Assembly: GCA_963710945.1 (NCBI GenBank)
Contig: CAVQCH010000002.1
Location: forward strand, 324,843 to 388,842
Source: an uncultured Acidobacteriota bacterium
GTDB taxonomy: Bacteria; Acidobacteriota; Thermoanaerobaculia; UBA5066; Gp7-AA6
Length of the DNA stretch: 64,000 nucleotides
Reading direction: 5' to 3'
Shown: positions 24,343 through 64,000 of the stretch, piece after piece
Layout: every line of letters begins with the position of its first letter
Position numbering within the stretch: position 1 is the first letter of the stretch
The notes under the pieces: model-generated
Databases searched by the model: none
Seen by the model: only the letters and a program-made list of their open reading frames with translations
What the model was told of the DNA's origin: nothing
Position numbers and translations under genes: made by a program

Positions 24343-24563
24343 GGACAAAGCCTTCGCATTCTAACCACGCAAGAACGGGGCCACGCGGTGAGCGCCGCCC
24401 GCGGCCGGAAGTTCAATGGATTGGGCAGGTTGGACGGGCGCCCTCGCCGGGCGTCACCGTGCCCTGACCTCGGCATAGGTCAAAGCGTCACCCGGAAGTC
24501 GCGATCCGCCGATCCCTCGACACACGTGCGCCCGCAGATACAGTTCACAACGACGGAGGACGC

Positions 24564-25175
24564 ATGACGACCACTCCCGAGACCCCTCATTTCGATCCGA
24601 CGCATCCCCAGCATCACTTTCGGTTCCACGTTCCCCATCTTCATCTCGGGTCGGCCTTCGGGGACGACTGGTTCGCGCTGAAGGCCGAGGCATTCGCACG
24701 GTTCTTCGGCACGCCGGTCTTTCTCGTGGCGCAGAGCGTGATCGTCGCCGTCTGGATAGGGCTGAACGTCTTTCGAGTGGTCTCGTTCGACCTTTATCCC
24801 TTCATCCTGCTCAATCTGGCGTTCAGCCTCCAGGCCGCGTACGCCGCACCGCTCATCCTGCTCGCCCAGACTCGACAGGCGGACCGGGACAAGGCGCACT
24901 CCGAGGCGGACGCCCAGCATCGGGAAGCCCTCGCGGCGGCCAGCGCGCAGCGCCAGCTTCTCGCCGCGGAGCAGACCGCGCAGCTGCTGGTACTGGTCGA
25001 GCAGAACACGCGACTGACGGAGCTCGCAAAGGAGCTGAGCCACCGGATCGAGGCGCTCACCCTCGACCTGCACGGAAAGGTCTGCAGGGGAGAGCCAGAC
25101 GGGAATGCGGGGTCCGGCGGCGCCGCCAAGAGTGTTCCCCCGCGACGTAGAATCCGCGCGGCGGTAATTCGATAG
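24564..25175 (+). CDS. DUF1003 domain membrane protein
   Basis: FGTPVFLVAQSVIVAVWIGLNV...FDLYPFILLNLAFSLQAAYAAPLILLAQTRQADRDK, a DUF1003 signature. Confidence 0.7.
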   Translation: MTTTPETPHFDPTHPQHHFRFHVPHLHLGSAFGDDWFALKAEAFARFFGTPVFLVAQSVIVAVWIGLNVFRVVSFDLYPFILLNLAFSLQAAYAAPLILLAQTRQADRDKAHSEADAQHREALAAASAQRQLLAAEQTAQLLVLVEQNTRLTELAKELSHRIEALTLDLHGKVCRGEPDGNAGSGGAAKSVPPRRRIRAAVIR

Positions 25176-25237
25176 CACTCTCGGCCGGAACGCGTCTGGG
25201 CCCCTACGAGATCGTCGCGCCTCTCGGGGCGGGCGGG

Positions 25238-28200
25238 ATGGGGGAGGTGTACCGGGCGCGGGACTCGAAGTTGAAGCGCGACGTGGCGGTCAAGGTACTG
25301 CCGCAGTCGCTGGCCGCCGATCCCGATGCGCTGGCGCGGTTCGAGCGCGAGGCCCTGGCGGTCGCGGCGCTGTCCCATCCGAACATCCTCTCCATCTTCG
25401 ACTTCGGGACGCATGAGGGGACGGCCTACGCGGTCATGGAGCTTCTGGACGGGGAGACGCTGCGCGGGAAGATCGACACCGGCCCGATTCTGCAGAAGCA
25501 GGCCGTGGACTATGCGCTCCAGATCGCGAAGGGCCTTTCCGCCGCCCACGAGAAGGGGATCGTCCACCGGGATCTGAAGCCCGAGAACCTCTTCGTTTCC
25601 AGGGACGGCCATCTCAAGATCCTCGACTTCGGTCTGGCCAAGCGCGTCGAGGCCGTCGCTCCGGGCGAGGAGACGAGCGCGCCGACGGGTTCGGGCCACA
25701 CGGAGCCCGGGACGGTGATGGGCACGGCGGGCTACATGTCGCCCGAGCAGGTGAAGGGGTTCGCGGTGGATCATCGCTCGGACATCTTCTCGTTCGGGAC
25801 GATCCTCTACGAGCTGCTTTCGGGCAGGAAGGCGTTCAAGCGGGATTCGAGCGCCGAGACGATGGCGGCCATCCTGCGAGACGACCCGCCGGAGTTGTCG
25901 GAATCCGGGCGGAACATCTCTCCCGCTCTCGACCGTGTCGTCAAGCATTGCCTGGAGAAGGACCGGGAACATCGGTTCCAGTCGGCCAGGGACATCGTGT
26001 TCAACCTCTCGGAGCAGCTGACGCCAGCGCCGACGGGCGGCCCCCGGGAAACCGCCCCGCCGATCGGCTCCAAGGGCTTCTGGATCGCCGTGCTGCCCTT
26101 CAAGTACGGAGGCGCCAACGCCGATCTCGCGGCCCTGGCCGACGGGCTCTCTGACGAAATCGTGACGGGTCTTTCGCGGTTTCGATATCTCTCGGTCGTT
26201 GCGAGCGCCTCGGCGGCGCGTCTGAAGGGCGTAGCGGGAGACGAGCGGTCCCTGGGCGCTCAACTCGGCGCGCGTTACGTGCTGGAGGGGAGCATTCGCG
26301 AGGGCGGTTCCGCCATTCGCGTGAGCGCCCGGCTCGTCGACGCCCAGACGGGAGCGCAGCTCTGGTCCGAGACGTTTGAACGGGACCTCCGGACGTCGGG
26401 CATCTTCGCGGCTCAGGACGACGTCGCCGCCCGCATCGTCGCGACGGTCGCCGACAGCTACGGGGTGCTCGTGCATTCGATAAGTGCCGCGGCCCGGCAG
26501 AAGGACGACGCCGATCTCACGCCGTTGGAGTGGCAGTTCCAGTATTTCGCCTACCGCGAGCAGATCACTCCCTCGGCCTACGCGGAGCTCAAGAGCCGGC
26601 TGGAGCGTGCGGTGGAGCGGGACGGCCGCCAGTCGGACCTCTGGGCGTGTCTCGCGCAGATCTTCGTCGACGAATACGCGTTTGGCTTCGGGACCGACCC
26701 GGCCGCTCTCGATCGTGCCCTGGCCGCGGCCCGCCGCGCGGTCGAACTCGATCGGGCGAACCAGTTTGCGCTCGTCGCGCTCGCCCAGACGCACTTCTTT
26801 CGCCAGGACCTCGCGGCGTTTGGTCCCGCGGCCGAGCGCGCGATGGCCCTCAACCCGCTCAACACCGACGCGGTCGGGATCCTGGGGTTGCAGATCGTGC
26901 ACACCGGCGACTTCGAGCGAGGCGCCGCGATCGTGCGTCGCGCGATGGAGCTCAATGCCAATCACGCGGGTTGGATGCATTTCGCTCCGCTCTGGGAGCA
27001 CTTCCACAAGGGCGAGTACGAGCAGGCTCTCGAGTGCGCGAACCGGGTAGACGTGCCCGGCCTTTTCTGGCCTTATCTCGTGGTGGCGTCTGCCTGCGGG
27101 CACCTCGGCCGGCGCGCCGAAGCCGCGGCCGCGGTCCGCGACCTGTTGTCGCTCGACCCCGAATTTGCGGCGCACGCGCGCTCGAACATCGGGAGCTGGC
27201 ACTTCGCGAGCGGCCTGATGGGGCCGATCCTGGATGGGCTGCGCAAGGCGGGGCTCGATCTGGCTCCCGAGCAGGAGCCTGCCGCCGCGGCTCGCCGGCG
27301 CGCTCCGGCTTCCGCAGCGCACTCGGGCGCCGCCCGCGCCGACGAGGGCTTCCGGGTCGCGGTGCTGCCGTTCAAGTACGGCGGAACCGACGCCGCTGTC
27401 ACGACGCTGGCCGAAGGGCTGGCGGAGGGGATCGTGACCGGGCTGTCACGTTTCTCCTACCTCCGGGTGATCTCGCGCACTTCCGGCGACAAGAATCTCG
27501 GTGCGCGCTATGTGATGGAGGGAAGTCTGCGGCAGGCGGGGACCAAACTGCGTCTGGCGGTACAGCTCGTGGACACGACTTCCGGTGCAAATCTCTGGGC
27601 CGAAGACTATGAACGCCCGTTCGCCCCGGACGCGGCCTTCGAGCTTCAGGACGATCTGGTTCCGCGGATCGTTTCGACGGTCGCGGATCAGTACGGCGCG
27701 CTGGTGCACAGCATGAGCGAGTCGCTGCGCGGCAGAAGCGCCACGGAATACTCCGCGCACGAGGCGGTGCTGCGGGCCTTCGGTTACTGGGAGCGCGTCA
27801 CCCTGGAGGAACACGCGGAAGTTCGCGAGATCCTCGAAGCGGCGGTTGCTCGCGCCCCCGGCCACAGCGACTGCCTCGCCGAACTGTCGTTGATTTACGG
27901 GCACGAGTACGTGTTCGGATACAACCTCAGGCCCGATCCACTGGGCCGCGCGCGTGCGGCCGCGCAACGCGCGGTCGCATCGGCGCCGACCAGCCACTTC
28001 GCCCACTGCGCATTGGCTTGCGGCTTGTTCTTCCTGAGGGACTTCCAGGCCTTCCGAACGGCGGCGGACCGCACCCTCGCCCTGAATGGAATGGATTCCT
28101 CCACCGCGGCGCTGCTCGGAACGATGATCGCCTATGCCGGTGACTGGGAATACGGGCTGGGCGTCGTGGAACGAGCGAAGCAACTCAACCCGCATCATCC

Positions 28201-31168
28201 GGGCTGGTATCACTACGTTGCCCTTACCGATGCCTACCGCCGGCGTGACTATCGCGGCGCACTGGCCATTGCCCTCAAGGTCAACATGCCCGGCTACTAT
28301 TGGCCGCACGTGTTGCTGGCCGCCGTCTATGGGCAGCTCGGTGAACTGGAGCGCGCGCGCACGGCGCTGCGGGAGCTGCACGCGCTGCTGCCGACCTTCG
28401 GCGCGACGGCGCGAGAGGAATTCGGCAAGTGGCATGACGTCGAGCTCACCGAGCATCTGCTCGACGGGCTGCGCAAGGCGGGGCTGGAGATTCCGCCGGA
28501 GAACGAGACCGCAGCCCCGCCGCCCGTACTCGCTCTTTCTTCCGCGACCGACTCGGGTGCGGCCCGCGCCGACGAGGGATTCTGGGTCGCGGTGCTGCCC
28601 TTCAAGTACGGCGGCGCCGACGCTTCCCTCACGGCTCTGGCCGACGGGCTGACCGAAGAGATCGTGACCGGCCTCTCGCGCTTCTCCTACCTGAGGGTGA
28701 TCGCGCGCAGTTCGACCTCGCGGTTTGCGAACGAACCGGTAGATGTGCGCTCTGCCGGCAAGGAACTGGGCGCTCGCTACGTGATGGAAGGCACCCTGCG
28801 GCAGGCGGGGAGGAAGCTTCGCCTCGCCGTCCAGCTGGTGGATGCGGCTTCCGGCGCTCATCTCTGGGCCGAGAGCTATGAGCGGATCTATCGCCCGGAG
28901 GCGGTCTTCGAGTTACAGGACGACCTGGTTCCGCGGATCGTTTCGACGGTCGCCGACATGCACGGGGTTCTGCCCCGGACCATGAGCGAGGCTGTGCGCA
29001 GCCGCGCTCCCGAGCAGTTGAGCCCCTACGAAGCCGTGCTGCGCAGCTTCGGCTACTCGACGCGGGTCACGCCCGAAGAACTTGCCGCGGCGCGCTCCGG
29101 CCTGGAATTGGCGGTGCGGAAGGCGCCGGCCTATGCCGACGCCTGGGCGATGCTGGCCTGGCTGCGCATCCAGGACCATGCGCAAAGTTTCAATCTTCAG
29201 CCGGATTCCCTGGCGAGCGGGCTGACCGCGGCGCGGCGGGCGGTGGAGGCGGCGCCATCCAGTCACCTGGCCCATGGCATGCTCGCCCAGGCGCTCTTCT
29301 TCCACAAAGAATTCCAGAGCTTCCGCAATGCGGCGGAGCGGGCCGTGGCCCTCAACCCGATGAACGGCGACTCCATCGCTTTTCTCGGTGAGTTGCTGAC
29401 CTATGCGGGTGACCGGGAGCGCGGCCTCGAGCTGGCGGGGCGCGCCAAGCAGCTCAATCCCAACCACCCCGGATGGTACTGGTATACCGATTTCTACGAC
29501 GCGTACCGCCGGGGCGACGACCGTGGCGCGCTCGATGCCGCGCTCAAGGTAAACCTGCCGGGGCAGTGGTTTTGGCACGCGGCGGTGGCCGCGGCCTGCG
29601 GGCAGCTCGGGGACCGCGTCGCGGCCAACAGGGCCTCGAAGGCCCTGCTCGAGCGGCGACCGGACTTCGCCGCCACCGCGCGCAGCGATATCGAGAAATG
29701 GTGGGAGCCCGAGTACGTCGAGCGTCTCATCGACGGCTGGCGCAAGGCGGGTCTGGACGTTGCCGTGCTGGCGCAAGCCGATTCCGCGGCGAAGCCGGCC
29801 GCGGCGGTCGCGATCGCGGTGTTGCCCTTCTCGGACATGAGCCCCGCGAAGGACCAGGACTACCTCTGCGAGGGCATGGCCGAGGAAATCATGAACGCGC
29901 TCGTTCGCATCGACGGGATTCGGGTGGCGTCGCGGACCTCGGCCTTCCGCGCGCGGCAGGAGGGCGGCGACCTGCCCGCGATCGCCCGCGCCCTCTCCGT
30001 GAACCACGTCCTCGAAGGGAGCGTGCGAACGGCCGGCACGCGGCTGCGCGTCACGGCACAACTCACCGACGTCGCGAGCGGCTACCAGCTCTGGTCGGAG
30101 CGATTCGATCGCGATGCTGCCGACATCTTCGCCGTCCAGGACGAAATTGCGGCCGGCGTCGTCGAAGCCGTCAAGGCGCGACTCGCGCCGGGGGAGCGGA
30201 CGATTCACGCTCGTCCGCAAGCGCGCAACCTCGAGGCCTACCGCAGCTACTTGAAGGGGCGGCATCTTCGGTACGCGAAGGAGGACTATGGCGGGGCGAT
30301 CCGCGCGTTCGAGGAGGCCGTCCGCCTCGACCCCACGCACGCGCCTTCGTGGACCGGTCTGGCGGAAAGCAACGCGGCCGCGGCGAACATGGGAGCGATC
30401 CCCGCGCGCGAGGCCTGCGCGGCCGCGAGAAATGCCCTGGCAACCGCGGTCGCGCTGGAGGGAGAGTCCGCGGACAGCCTTCATGCCGAGGCCTTCGTGG
30501 CCCTGATCGAACGACGATGGGCGGCGATGGAGGCCACCTGGCGCCGGGCCATCGAGCTCCAACCCACTCACAGCCTGGCCCTGGGCTCGTTCGGGATCAG
30601 CCTCTGCATACGGCAGAAGGCCGACGAGGGATTGCGGTTCCTGGAGCGCGCCCGGGAGGCCGATCCGCTCGCGTCCTTTCCTCTGATGCTCACCGGATGG
30701 GCGATGCTGTGCATCGGAAGGCCGCAGGAGGCCCGGCGTTACGCGGAGGACGCGCTCTCTTTCGAGAAAGAGGACGCTTCGGCCTTGCTTTGCTCGATCA
30801 TGGCGAAGATCGCCCTCGGGCAATTCGAAGAAGGAATTGCGATCGCGGAGCACCTCGTCGCGGTGTCGCACCGCGGTGTCTCCCTCTTCCTCGCTCTCCT
30901 GGGATGGGCGCTCGCGACCGCGGGACGGAAGGACGAAGCCCGGAAACTTCTCCAGGAGCTGCGAGCCCTTCCGGCGCACCACTTCGTCTCGGAGGGCTGG
31001 CTGCATGGCGCGCTCGGCGAGATCGACGCGGCCTTCGAAGCGCTCGCGCGGGCGGAAGAGGCGTACCAGGCCACTCTCTACTACACGGGATTGCCCGGCT
31101 TCGATTCTCTCCGCGCAGATCCGCGATTCGGAGCGCTGCTCGAGAGGCTGGAGCTGGCGTCCGCTTGA
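25238..31168 (+). CDS. giant Ser/Thr protein kinase (about 2 kaa): N-terminal Hanks kinase domain plus four tandem sensor modules (TolB-N-like LPF alpha/beta domain + TPR-like helical domain). The true start is probably upstream (about 25172, non-canonical ATA/CTG) because the glycine loop begins before the first ATG
   Basis: Kinase motifs GAGGMGEVY, AVKVL, HRDLKPEN, DFG, GTAGYMSPE; module starts GFWIAVLPFKYGG (26075), GFRVAVLPFKYGG (27348), GFWVAVLPFKYGG (28578), AIAVLPFSDMSPAKDQDYLCEGMAEEIMNALVRI (about 29800). Confidence 0.85.
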   Translation: MGEVYRARDSKLKRDVAVKVLPQSLAADPDALARFEREALAVAALSHPNILSIFDFGTHEGTAYAVMELLDGETLRGKIDTGPILQKQAVDYALQIAKGLSAAHEKGIVHRDLKPENLFVSRDGHLKILDFGLAKRVEAVAPGEETSAPTGSGHTEPGTVMGTAGYMSPEQVKGFAVDHRSDIFSFGTILYELLSGRKAFKRDSSAETMAAILRDDPPELSESGRNISPALDRVVKHCLEKDREHRFQSARDIVFNLSEQLTPAPTGGPRETAPPIGSKGFWIAVLPFKYGGANADLAALADGLSDEIVTGLSRFRYLSVVASASAARLKGVAGDERSLGAQLGARYVLEGSIREGGSAIRVSARLVDAQTGAQLWSETFERDLRTSGIFAAQDDVAARIVATVADSYGVLVHSISAAARQKDDADLTPLEWQFQYFAYREQITPSAYAELKSRLERAVERDGRQSDLWACLAQIFVDEYAFGFGTDPAALDRALAAARRAVELDRANQFALVALAQTHFFRQDLAAFGPAAERAMALNPLNTDAVGILGLQIVHTGDFERGAAIVRRAMELNANHAGWMHFAPLWEHFHKGEYEQALECANRVDVPGLFWPYLVVASACGHLGRRAEAAAAVRDLLSLDPEFAAHARSNIGSWHFASGLMGPILDGLRKAGLDLAPEQEPAAAARRRAPASAAHSGAARADEGFRVAVLPFKYGGTDAAVTTLAEGLAEGIVTGLSRFSYLRVISRTSGDKNLGARYVMEGSLRQAGTKLRLAVQLVDTTSGANLWAEDYERPFAPDAAFELQDDLVPRIVSTVADQYGALVHSMSESLRGRSATEYSAHEAVLRAFGYWERVTLEEHAEVREILEAAVARAPGHSDCLAELSLIYGHEYVFGYNLRPDPLGRARAAAQRAVASAPTSHFAHCALACGLFFLRDFQAFRTAADRTLALNGMDSSTAALLGTMIAYAGDWEYGLGVVERAKQLNPHHPGWYHYVALTDAYRRRDYRGALAIALKVNMPGYYWPHVLLAAVYGQLGELERARTALRELHALLPTFGATAREEFGKWHDVELTEHLLDGLRKAGLEIPPENETAAPPPVLALSSATDSGAARADEGFWVAVLPFKYGGADASLTALADGLTEEIVTGLSRFSYLRVIARSSTSRFANEPVDVRSAGKELGARYVMEGTLRQAGRKLRLAVQLVDAASGAHLWAESYERIYRPEAVFELQDDLVPRIVSTVADMHGVLPRTMSEAVRSRAPEQLSPYEAVLRSFGYSTRVTPEELAAARSGLELAVRKAPAYADAWAMLAWLRIQDHAQSFNLQPDSLASGLTAARRAVEAAPSSHLAHGMLAQALFFHKEFQSFRNAAERAVALNPMNGDSIAFLGELLTYAGDRERGLELAGRAKQLNPNHPGWYWYTDFYDAYRRGDDRGALDAALKVNLPGQWFWHAAVAAACGQLGDRVAANRASKALLERRPDFAATARSDIEKWWEPEYVERLIDGWRKAGLDVAVLAQADSAAKPAAAVAIAVLPFSDMSPAKDQDYLCEGMAEEIMNALVRIDGIRVASRTSAFRARQEGGDLPAIARALSVNHVLEGSVRTAGTRLRVTAQLTDVASGYQLWSERFDRDAADIFAVQDEIAAGVVEAVKARLAPGERTIHARPQARNLEAYRSYLKGRHLRYAKEDYGGAIRAFEEAVRLDPTHAPSWTGLAESNAAAANMGAIPAREACAAARNALATAVALEGESADSLHAEAFVALIERRWAAMEATWRRAIELQPTHSLALGSFGISLCIRQKADEGLRFLERAREADPLASFPLMLTGWAMLCIGRPQEARRYAEDALSFEKEDASALLCSIMAKIALGQFEEGIAIAEHLVAVSHRGVSLFLALLGWALATAGRKDEARKLLQELRALPAHHFVSEGWLHGALGEIDAAFEALARAEEAYQATLYYTGLPGFDSLRADPRFGALLERLELASA

Positions 31169-63582: not shown

Positions 63583-63828
63583 TAAAGAGCCGATGCTCTG
63601 CTCTTCGGGCCCTTCGAGGGCCGCGGGCGGCATCCTTTTTTTCGGGGCCTTTCGATTCGATCGAGCCGTCGAAAATCGGGGGCCCTTTTCCTTCGATCGA
63701 GGCCCACGCCTTTGCGAGCCGAGTGGGCCCCTTTTCGTTGACTCATTGTGAACTTCCTGTAGGTTCGAGTCCTACACGGCTCACCACTCATCACCAAACA
63801 GAATAAAATCCTCGCTACGGTCACCGCG

Positions 63829-64000
63829 TGACTCTCGCAGCCGGGACACGCCTCGGTCCCTACGAGATCCTGTCGCCGCTGGGCGCTGGGGGTATGGGAA
63901 AGGTGTACCGGGCGCGGGACACACGGCTCGCGCGCGAGGTGGCGATCAAGGTCCTCCCCGAGGAGTTGACGCCTGACTCCGAGCGGCTCAAGCGCTTCGA
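63829..64000 (+). CDS. Ser/Thr protein kinase, N-terminal fragment (continues beyond the window)
   Basis: GTG start; [46 protein letters not shown] (glycine loop + VAIK). Confidence 0.8.

Follow-up and report, generated by a model that had tools for sequence, protein, structure and literature searches.

A probable AUA start codon and its conserved leader in a four-module Ser/Thr kinase gene of an uncultured Acidobacteriota bacterium

The 64,000-nucleotide (nt) stretch of DNA analysed here (the window; contig CAVQCH010000002.1 of assembly GCA_963710945.1, positions 324,843 to 388,842 of the forward strand) comes from an uncultured bacterium of the Thermoanaerobaculia, phylum Acidobacteriota, and carries on its forward strand a gene for a very large Hanks-type Ser/Thr kinase that has no conventional start codon ahead of its ATP-binding loop. 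Our analysis makes it likely that an intact, multi-module kinase is translated from the AUA codon at position 25172; the complete coding sequence counted from this ATA (25172..31168, forward strand) comprises 1,998 amino acids (aa) plus the stop, giving a product of 218 kDa. From the comparison of related genes we conclude that translation would start at AUA 25172 with initiator tRNA, and not at the annotated ATG 25238. The recurrence of the ATA and of the 24-nt leader before it indicates that both are a conserved feature of a kinase subfamily and not a private mutation of this genome, and the odd start looks like deliberate expression control, not an error.

The kinase frame is uninterrupted from 25151 to its stop at 31166–31168 and is closed on its 5' side by an in-frame TAG at 25148–25150. 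The first ATG, GTG or TTG in this frame is ATG 25238, which encodes the Met within the Gly-rich loop GAGGMGEV, while the 29 codons preceding it include near-cognate codons only (ATA 25172, ACG 25190, CTG 25196 and ATC 25211), a listing that agrees with the first-pass annotation of this DNA, which had reported no canonical start between the stop and the Gly-loop ATG. The public-database version of the protein (P0001) is 100% identical but starts at ATG 25238 and has 1,976 aa, and a mechanical listing of open reading frames (ORFs) picks the same ATG; the Gly loop is whole only if translation initiates 5' of it. The N-termini of orthologues begin M-[TAS]-L-[SAP]..., and alignment of the window N-terminus with them places the proposed initiation codon, ATA 25172..25174 on the forward strand, exactly at Met1.

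To set this codon in context, the codon 18 positions before the GxGG was read in 126 kinase N-termini from 80 genome loci and the window. The Met1 position was occupied by ATG in 76 of these, by GTG in 26, by TTG in five and by ATA in two, and only four of the 126 lacked a canonical codon ahead of the Gly loop, namely the window and locus L025, both with ATA, together with the gene at L049:6001, which has CTG at the Met1 position, and that at L035:8572, which has TGA there and is probably broken. The alignment and the survey together uphold the earlier suggestion that the ATA sits where orthologues have ATG. L025 belongs to a different species-level metagenome-assembled genome (MAG) and shares TAGAATCCGCGC-NNN-GGT-NANN-CGATA with the window. 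A scan of JGI metagenomes for ATA followed by a degenerate coding pattern for a 13-residue stretch returned eight contigs (data sets Ga0326726, Ga0114129, Ga0210402 and Ga0066903), seven of which have the same leader; the eighth, L082, was discarded as a false positive, its ATA being followed by a real ATG, that is, an ordinary ATG start. The ATA is invariant in the resulting nine loci, all of them from uncultured MAGs or metagenome contigs, and in 9/9 of these genes the frame is closed eight codons 5' of the ATA by the TAG or TAA of a TAGAAT or TAAAAT hexamer, with no canonical start after it.

The pattern of substitution among these genes changes at the ATA. Over the 22 codons from the ATA, the variable sites number 3, 1 and 17 at the first, second and third codon positions, and pairwise comparisons give 269 synonymous against 54 non-synonymous differences; over the seven in-frame codons before it, the variable sites number 5, 1 and 3, with 6 synonymous against 99 non-synonymous pairwise differences. 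Since the switch falls exactly at the ATA, translation in this frame would begin at the ATA or within a codon of it. These counts bear directly on the alternative that the annotated ATG 25238 is the true start, in which case the kinase would lack strand β1 and the first half of the Gly loop and the 22 codons would be an untranslated leader. ATG 25238 is the sole canonical start and the choice of the gene callers, as in P0001, and its Met is also the first residue of many family entries in the databases; nevertheless, we consider this start improbable, because the 22 codons evolve as coding sequence (17 of their 21 variable sites are third-position sites) and encode a β1/Gly-loop sequence conserved in all relatives, and because a kinase lacking the GxGxxG-β1 region is expected, from general knowledge of kinase structure, to bind ATP poorly. 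Moreover, every 'MGEVY' start that was checked proved to be a mis-call, with ATG or GTG 22 codons upstream.

Entries called from the Gly-loop Met as 'MGEVY...', with 22 residues lost, include P0001, P0059, P0202, P0204, P0221, P0170 and about 30 others. Homologues of this kind were considered as further ATA cases and ruled out, their starts being gene-caller choices with canonical starts upstream. Two points limit how far the ATA start can be extended through the family. L001 and L090–L096, annotated from 'MGEVY', all have ATG or GTG 22 codons upstream, and the ATA-type genes are therefore a minority in a clade where canonical starts prevail; the metagenome scan, furthermore, demanded ATA and was blind to genes with the same leader that use ATG.

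It is very improbable that the ATA arose as an error of sequencing or assembly, or by recent inactivating mutation of ATG to ATA, which would make the gene a mis-assembly or a fresh pseudogene. Such an origin would need no more than one G-to-A transition, at the third base of the expected ATG, and the three non-canonical cases among the genome loci (L025, L035 and L049) all derive from 'MFD' MAGs, whose very long contigs suggest long-read assemblies. However, the same ATA and leader occur in seven contigs from four separate JGI data sets and in another MAG; the kinase domains of the ATA-type genes have diverged to 48–78% mutual identity with the frame still intact under purifying selection, while the leader is nearly invariant; the 6-kb ORF of the window has no other lesion; and all full-length copies are intact, no frameshifts or stops being seen in the other ATA-type loci except in a relic at L085:359. 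Systematic miscalling of CGATG as CGATA was also rejected, as the window holds 270 CGATG against 36 CGATA.

The relic just mentioned (L085:359–487) consists of a second ATA-type leader, TAGAAT-N10-GTG-GCC-CGA-TAA, followed by 22 kinase codons, unrelated sequence and a stop, and this remnant of a kinase 5' end lies 2.4 kb upstream of an intact ATA-type kinase. In a neighbour-joining tree the ATA-type genes are scattered; a recombinant origin, by which an ATA-type 5' end was joined to a multi-module body, was considered but not adopted, sliding identity having given no clear answer. ATA is a rare codon within the kinase ORF (3 of its 65 Ile codons). The 81-nt segment beginning at 25160 has less structure than 200 of 200 shuffled sequences, and weak structure is usual for initiation regions; the start region contained no conserved hairpin and the leader region gave no credible Rfam match.

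The hexamer TAGAAT (25148..25153, forward strand), the TAG of which is the in-frame stop, resembles a promoter −10 box, and we infer that it probably serves as one. It stands at the same 18-nt distance from the ATA in eight other loci, and a −10-like hexamer lies within 45 nt upstream of the start in 49 of 110 canonical-start paralogues compared with 1.1% of random windows; the gap between the hexamer and the start codon ranges over 8–18 nt and peaks sharply at 11–12 nt. The hexamer variants found in paralogues are TATAAT, TAGAAT, TAGAGT and TAGTCT (loci L001–L081 and window positions 63804–63830). Between hexamer and start no Shine-Dalgarno (SD) sequence was seen in the canonical-start paralogues, as judged by eye and not by count. 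Weighing against a promoter at this site, a two-hexamer scan gave no −35 partner for TAGAAT. Transcripts of the kinase family appear to be leaderless or nearly so. In the usual sigma-70 geometry, transcription starts about 7 nt after the hexamer; if that holds here, leaders in the family would be a few nt long and the ATA-type leader about 12 nt.

This putative 12-nt leader, delimited in the nine-leader alignment, is GGCGGTAATTCG in the window (25160..25171, forward strand) and includes an SD-like GGCGGT, for which the relatives have GCGGTGATCCG; the element GGTGATCC is complementary to the conserved 3' end of 16S rRNA, GGAUCACC, an established sequence, the loci themselves containing no 16S gene. 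In the nine aligned leaders, TAGAAT is followed by 10 nt and then, in the eight relatives, by GTG-ANN-CGA-TAR, the TAR overlapping the ATA, so that a 3-codon mini-ORF ends on the start codon of the kinase. The GTG shares the reading frame of the overlapping stop in 8/8 of the other ATA loci, where stop and start together read ATAA or ATAG, and in L086, L087 and L088 it is the only start codon of the mini-ORF frame; its distance of 10 nt from the hexamer is within the range at which paralogues place their real starts. The CGA before the stop is invariant, whereas the bases that would extend the SD pairing vary (TT, AC, TC, AG). Two relatives with canonical starts share parts of this arrangement: L041, which starts with GTG, also has GTG-ATC-GCG-TGA over that start, and L091, which starts with ATG, has the same TAGAAT plus 18-nt geometry without GGTGA.

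In the window, the site of the mini-ORF reads GTA-ATT-CGA-TAG (25164..25175, forward strand), with GTG replaced by GTA, and is read as the C-terminus (..A-A-V-I-R-stop) of an upstream ORF for a DUF1003 membrane protein (24564..25175, forward strand; Pfam DUF1003, E 1.4e-24), which has one hydrophobic segment around aa 47–70. The stop of this ORF, TAG 25173–25175, overlaps ATA 25172–25174 as ATAG 25172–25175, and the coordinates thus confirm the overlap noted in the first reading of the sequence. The last 14 codons of the DUF1003 ORF (25131–25172) have a third-position GC content of 0.43, against 0.85–0.95 in the body of the gene, and this tail is therefore read-through into the kinase promoter and leader. 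By tblastn, DUF1003 stood beside the kinase only in the window and next to none of the related kinases. Conserved DUF1003-kinase synteny was accordingly rejected, the region upstream of the L025 kinase being intergenic. A sigma70-like site at 24517–24544 (TCGACA, 16 nt, TACAGT), 20 nt upstream of the DUF1003 ATG, could yield a DUF1003-kinase co-transcript.

The route by which we tentatively favour that the ribosome reaches AUA 25172 is translational coupling by termination-reinitiation, to which we assign a little short of an even chance. A ribosome would complete the frame whose UAG or UAA stop overlaps the AUA (A-UAR) and, after termination, would re-initiate one base back, on the AUA. In the relatives the terminating frame would be the 3-codon mini-ORF GUG-ANN-CGA-stop, with its GUG 10 nt after TAGAAT; in the window, where GUG has become GUA, ribosomes would arrive at that UAG in the same frame by way of the DUF1003 ORF, which would stand in for the mini-ORF. 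Through its complementarity to the 3' end of 16S rRNA, the GGUGA(UCC)/GGCGGU element would anchor the ribosome there, and the outcome would be a weak, IF3-sensitive start keeping a very large regulator at a low level. We infer that such a weak AUA start may keep the level of the kinase low and possibly make it responsive to IF3 or to upstream translation.

A competing account, to which we give an appreciable probability without placing it first, has 30S subunits reaching the AUA de novo through a start-proximal SD-like element (GGTGATCC in the relatives, GGCGGTAAT in the window), the mini-ORF and the overlap being by-products. The position of the complementary GGTGATCC, 5–6 nt before the ATA, agrees with this, and the element is linked to the ATA by the general lack of an SD in the canonical-start paralogues and by L091, in which the same geometry with ATG goes without GGTGA. 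There is also precedent in Staphylococcus aureus, where the AUA starts of infC, ccpN and citZ all have an extended SD (PMC13009471). Initiation guided by the SD alone does not, however, readily accommodate the variation at the pairing-extending positions beside an invariant CGA, nor the window itself, where the motif is weakened (GGTAAT) and yet an ORF ending on the overlapping stop is kept, nor the retention in L041 of GTG-NNN-NNN-stop over a canonical GTG start; moreover, a transcript that began about 7 nt past the hexamer would carry the SD only about 3 nt from its 5' end.

For the window, coupling is preferred over SD-only initiation because its SD complementarity is reduced and the overlapping stop belongs to a real ORF. 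The two may also act together, because in Escherichia coli re-initiation requires initiator tRNA, is aided by an SD and is IF3-sensitive (PMC2268962). Several observations nevertheless count against coupling. The GTG lies within GGTGA, so that conservation of a mini-ORF start and conservation of an SD-like element are inseparable by sequence; the overlapping stop follows automatically from ATA and a second codon beginning with A or G (Thr or Ala); for a set of related sequences the prior chance that the GTG falls in the frame of the stop is about 1/3; and the window has lost both the GTG and, as GGTAAT, part of the SD complementarity.

A more elaborate form of coupling, which we regard as doubtful, is that the subfamily uses a dedicated device, in which a promoter-adjacent and essentially leaderless GUG-ANN-CGA-UAR would load the ribosome and the AUA would be usable only after termination; as part of the same reading, DUF1003 would have run into this device in the window and replaced the start of the mini-ORF. 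If true, this would be a conserved bacterial case of start by reinitiation at a non-canonical codon, better conserved than the kinase that it controls. The overlap of the frames and the rare CGA that precedes the stop in all ATA-type loci, with an SD-like element just upstream, also bring to mind a programmed −1 frameshift at CGA-TAG, by which the kinase would be fused to DUF1003 or to the mini-ORF peptide. This we consider exceedingly improbable: a slippery X-XXY-YYZ heptamer is lacking, CGA is preceded variously by T, C or G, which would leave the P-site tRNA unable to pair again after slipping by −1, and DUF1003 is absent from all the other loci. The fusion would need a −1 or +2 shift, whereas a closely spaced SD promotes +1 shifts, as in prfB.

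Counted from the ATA, the protein begins with a Hanks-type Ser/Thr kinase catalytic domain at aa 12–270 (25205..25981, forward strand), which matches Pfam PF00069 Pkinase with 172.9 bits against a cut-off of 31.7 (E 1e-50, model positions 1–253 of 263). The catalytic motifs are all intact, with GAGGMGEV at aa 19, VAVK at 38, HRDLKPEN at 132, DFG at 152 and SPE at 190, and together with the open frame these results substantiate the earlier description of one uninterrupted kinase polypeptide. No membrane segment was found in the protein, the maximum 19-residue hydropathy being 1.5, and the Pfam scan gave no PASTA repeat match; the Stk1/PknB PASTA kinase model NF033483 was not reached (303 bits against a cut-off of 450) and aligned to the kinase domain only. 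The gene is thus predicted to encode an intact, soluble cytoplasmic Hanks-type Ser/Thr kinase, the C-terminal ~1,700 residues of which form a four-module array.

The array divides into four modules of about 410–460 aa each on the forward strand, every one marked by an [IV]AVLPF motif (aa 306, 730, 1140 and 1549). Module 1 (M1; 26060..27331), of a 'head' type, has an α/β subdomain and a tetratricopeptide repeat (TPR) superhelix; modules 2 (M2; 27332..28561, the copy for which a structure was modelled) and 3 (M3; 28562..29788) are of a 'middle' type; and module 4 (M4; 29789..31165), of a 'tail' type, is the most divergent and has canonical TPRs. By BLASTP, M2 and M3 are 56.8% identical (E 3e-151), M1 is 43% identical to M2 and 45% to M3, and M4 shares 27–30% identity with the other modules over ~290 aa (E ~1e-23), a level of similarity far above chance. 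All four modules align with one another, and full-length with relatives. The first-pass estimate of 35–40% for copy 1 was too low.

M2 was modelled by AlphaFold2 from an alignment of 22 diverse module sequences (pLDDT 90.1, pTM 0.88), and the model exhibits a β-α-β4-α subdomain (residues 7–118) followed by fifteen helices (residues 123–382), in keeping with the α/β subdomain and TPR superhelix expected of the module. The top Foldseek match in the PDB was the sensor domain of CadC (3LYA/3LY7; E 8e-7, probability 1.0), in an alignment of 300–312 columns spanning both subdomains, though with low TM-scores of 0.29–0.43; TPR superhelices ranked after CadC, and the α/β part also matched PelC (5T11, E 6e-4) and the N-domain of TolB (1C5K, E 1e-3). 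A module profile with M2 as its first sequence (A1) matched consensus TPR proteins with E values of 2.5e-36 to 4.8e-68, and Pfam TPR_2, TPR_14 and TPR_17 scored above cut-off in M4, as did TPR_14 in M2 (23.6 against 23.5); the helical part of the module is therefore classed, on these profiles, as true TPR. For TolB_N (PF04052, cut-off 22.4) the whole protein sums to 49 bits, while singly M1 reaches 20.0, M4 17.4 and M2 and M3 give no match. The NCBIfam HilA/EilA model aligns weakly to aa 305–624, below threshold (86.8 against a cut-off of 589), which fits a CadC/ToxR-like kinship of the modules. BLASTP, the model and the profiles accordingly agree with the initial view of four homologous two-domain modules, each with a TolB-N-like α/β domain followed by TPR-like helices.

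The protein contains no hydrophobic stretch of membrane strength, and the modules are therefore taken to be cytoplasmic, unlike those of CadC. The four modules are under purifying selection, the catalytic domain is complete and the location is cytoplasmic. Each module most likely binds a small ligand or a partner protein and controls the kinase, and the array would integrate several inputs onto kinase activity.

Relatives in the database number 4,874 at E<1e-20. Module counts were taken from the top 120 of these, which are almost all from Acidobacteriota (Thermoanaerobaculia, Terriglobia) and have lengths clustering near 1,550, 2,000, 2,420, 2,860 and 3,300 aa. The motif count, an underestimate since some motifs are missed, gave three modules in 35 proteins, four in 43, five in 33, six in five and seven in two (118/120 with 3–7), the overall range being 2–7 with nearly all at 3–5. 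The idea that usual family members have a single module and that four are exceptional is not supported among these relatives; in the fetched genome loci, single-module kinases with the motif (n=18) and multi-module kinases (~16) are similarly common. Modules resembling M1 (at least 65% identity) were in first position in 62/62 cases, those resembling M4 were last in the protein in 43/44 cases among the modules of close relatives, and M2- and M3-like modules sit between the head and tail types. This fixed head-middle-tail order in relatives lends weight to the proposal that the quadruplication is old and maintained, and the sequences describe a large family of Acidobacteriota proteins whose conserved head (M1 type) and tail (M4 type) modules bracket a varying number of middle modules.

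Two relatives, P0024 and P0110, have the same module array fused to an adenylate/guanylate cyclase domain (PF00211) in place of the kinase, and the array can therefore be regarded as a portable input unit. In loci L003, L023, L027, L031, L033, L038, L046 and others, paralogous kinase genes stand three to five in tandem, and many of these arrayed paralogues are ~860 aa long with other C-terminal domains, for example PD40/Tricorn-like in L001 and L096. A second kinase of the same family begins in the window itself at 63828 (63828..64000, forward strand, running off the window), with TAAAAT and 18 nt before its start; the GTG start assigned to it in the first-pass annotation was right, the coordinate 63829 was one base too high. 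Fragments resembling tRNA 3' ends (GGTTCGAnTCC ... CCA) lie directly upstream of several kinases, at 63761–63790 in the window, at ~5735–5790 in L025 and just upstream of 6001/2504 in L002, L004 and L019. These are not tRNA genes, as neither ARAGORN nor Rfam found a tRNA or tmRNA there, and they may be remnants of integration sites.

For annotation, the consequence is that pipelines truncate the window kinase and many of its relatives at the Gly-loop Met, dropping β1 and half of the ATP-binding loop, and the true N-terminus would matter for any structural or biochemical work on the kinase. An AUA start kept across kinases of ~50% identity, with a near-invariant 24-nt leader, offers a clean case outside model organisms, and the AUA leaders set two routes to a weak codon, SD guidance and termination-reinitiation, side by side in nature. 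Soil Acidobacteriota are rich in this family, which comprises cytoplasmic kinases and some cyclases with 2–7 CadC-like modules in fixed order and may show how one kinase integrates many inputs. We found no paper in the literature on this kinase-module architecture, and the text of a 2025 atlas of bacterial Ser/Thr kinases names neither Acidobacteria nor TolB.

Among known systems, the module is most like the sensor of E. coli CadC (3LY7/3LYA) and HilA/ToxR-like regulators, in which an N-terminal α/β subdomain is likewise followed by an all-helical TPR-like bundle. However, sequence identity to CadC is only 13–15%, in line with the low TM-scores, and the CadC sensor is periplasmic and carried on a winged-helix DNA-binding domain, whereas the modules in the window are cytoplasmic, fourfold and carried on a kinase. 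As a soluble Hanks kinase with C-terminal TPRs, the protein also resembles PknG and the families Strep1, Strep2, Myxo1 and GN-NS1 of the kinase atlas; in these kinases the C-terminal TPR scaffolds are believed to link the sensing of a signal with phosphorylation (PMC8546545). In the descriptions of PknG and of those four families, neither a TolB-N-like subdomain nor a tandem module array appears.

With regard to the start codon, the closest parallels are the S. aureus genes infC, ccpN, citZ and cvfC1, which have conserved AUA or AUU starts with an extended SD and ~10–30% of the expression given by AUG (PMC13009471), and the AUU start of E. coli infC. As in these cases, a conserved start other than AUG, GUG or UUG is accompanied in a regulator gene by an element complementary to 16S rRNA, and weak, IF3-sensitive initiation would be expected. 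The present case differs in its phylum, Acidobacteriota, in the gene being that for a Hanks kinase and in the start being proposed from sequence comparison; in the leader of only ~12 nt behind a −10-like box, pairing through GGTGAUCC and not GGAGG; and in the 3-codon ORF (in the window, a full gene) that ends on a stop overlapping the AUA. Overlapping gene pairs coupled by termination-reinitiation, with overlaps of the ATGA or TAATG type, are described in PMC10666635, and our case is like them in its 4-nt stop/start overlap (A-TAG over ATA) and in a downstream gene without a strong independent start. Unlike the usual AUGA pairs, the downstream AUA forces UAA or UAG as the stop, and the upstream partner is not conserved as a gene, its place being taken in the relatives by the 3-codon mini-ORF. 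A conserved AUA start with an rRNA-complementary element is thus an already known kind of control; what is new is an ATA start in Acidobacteriota kinases with a near-invariant, promoter-adjacent leader and an ORF whose stop overlaps it.

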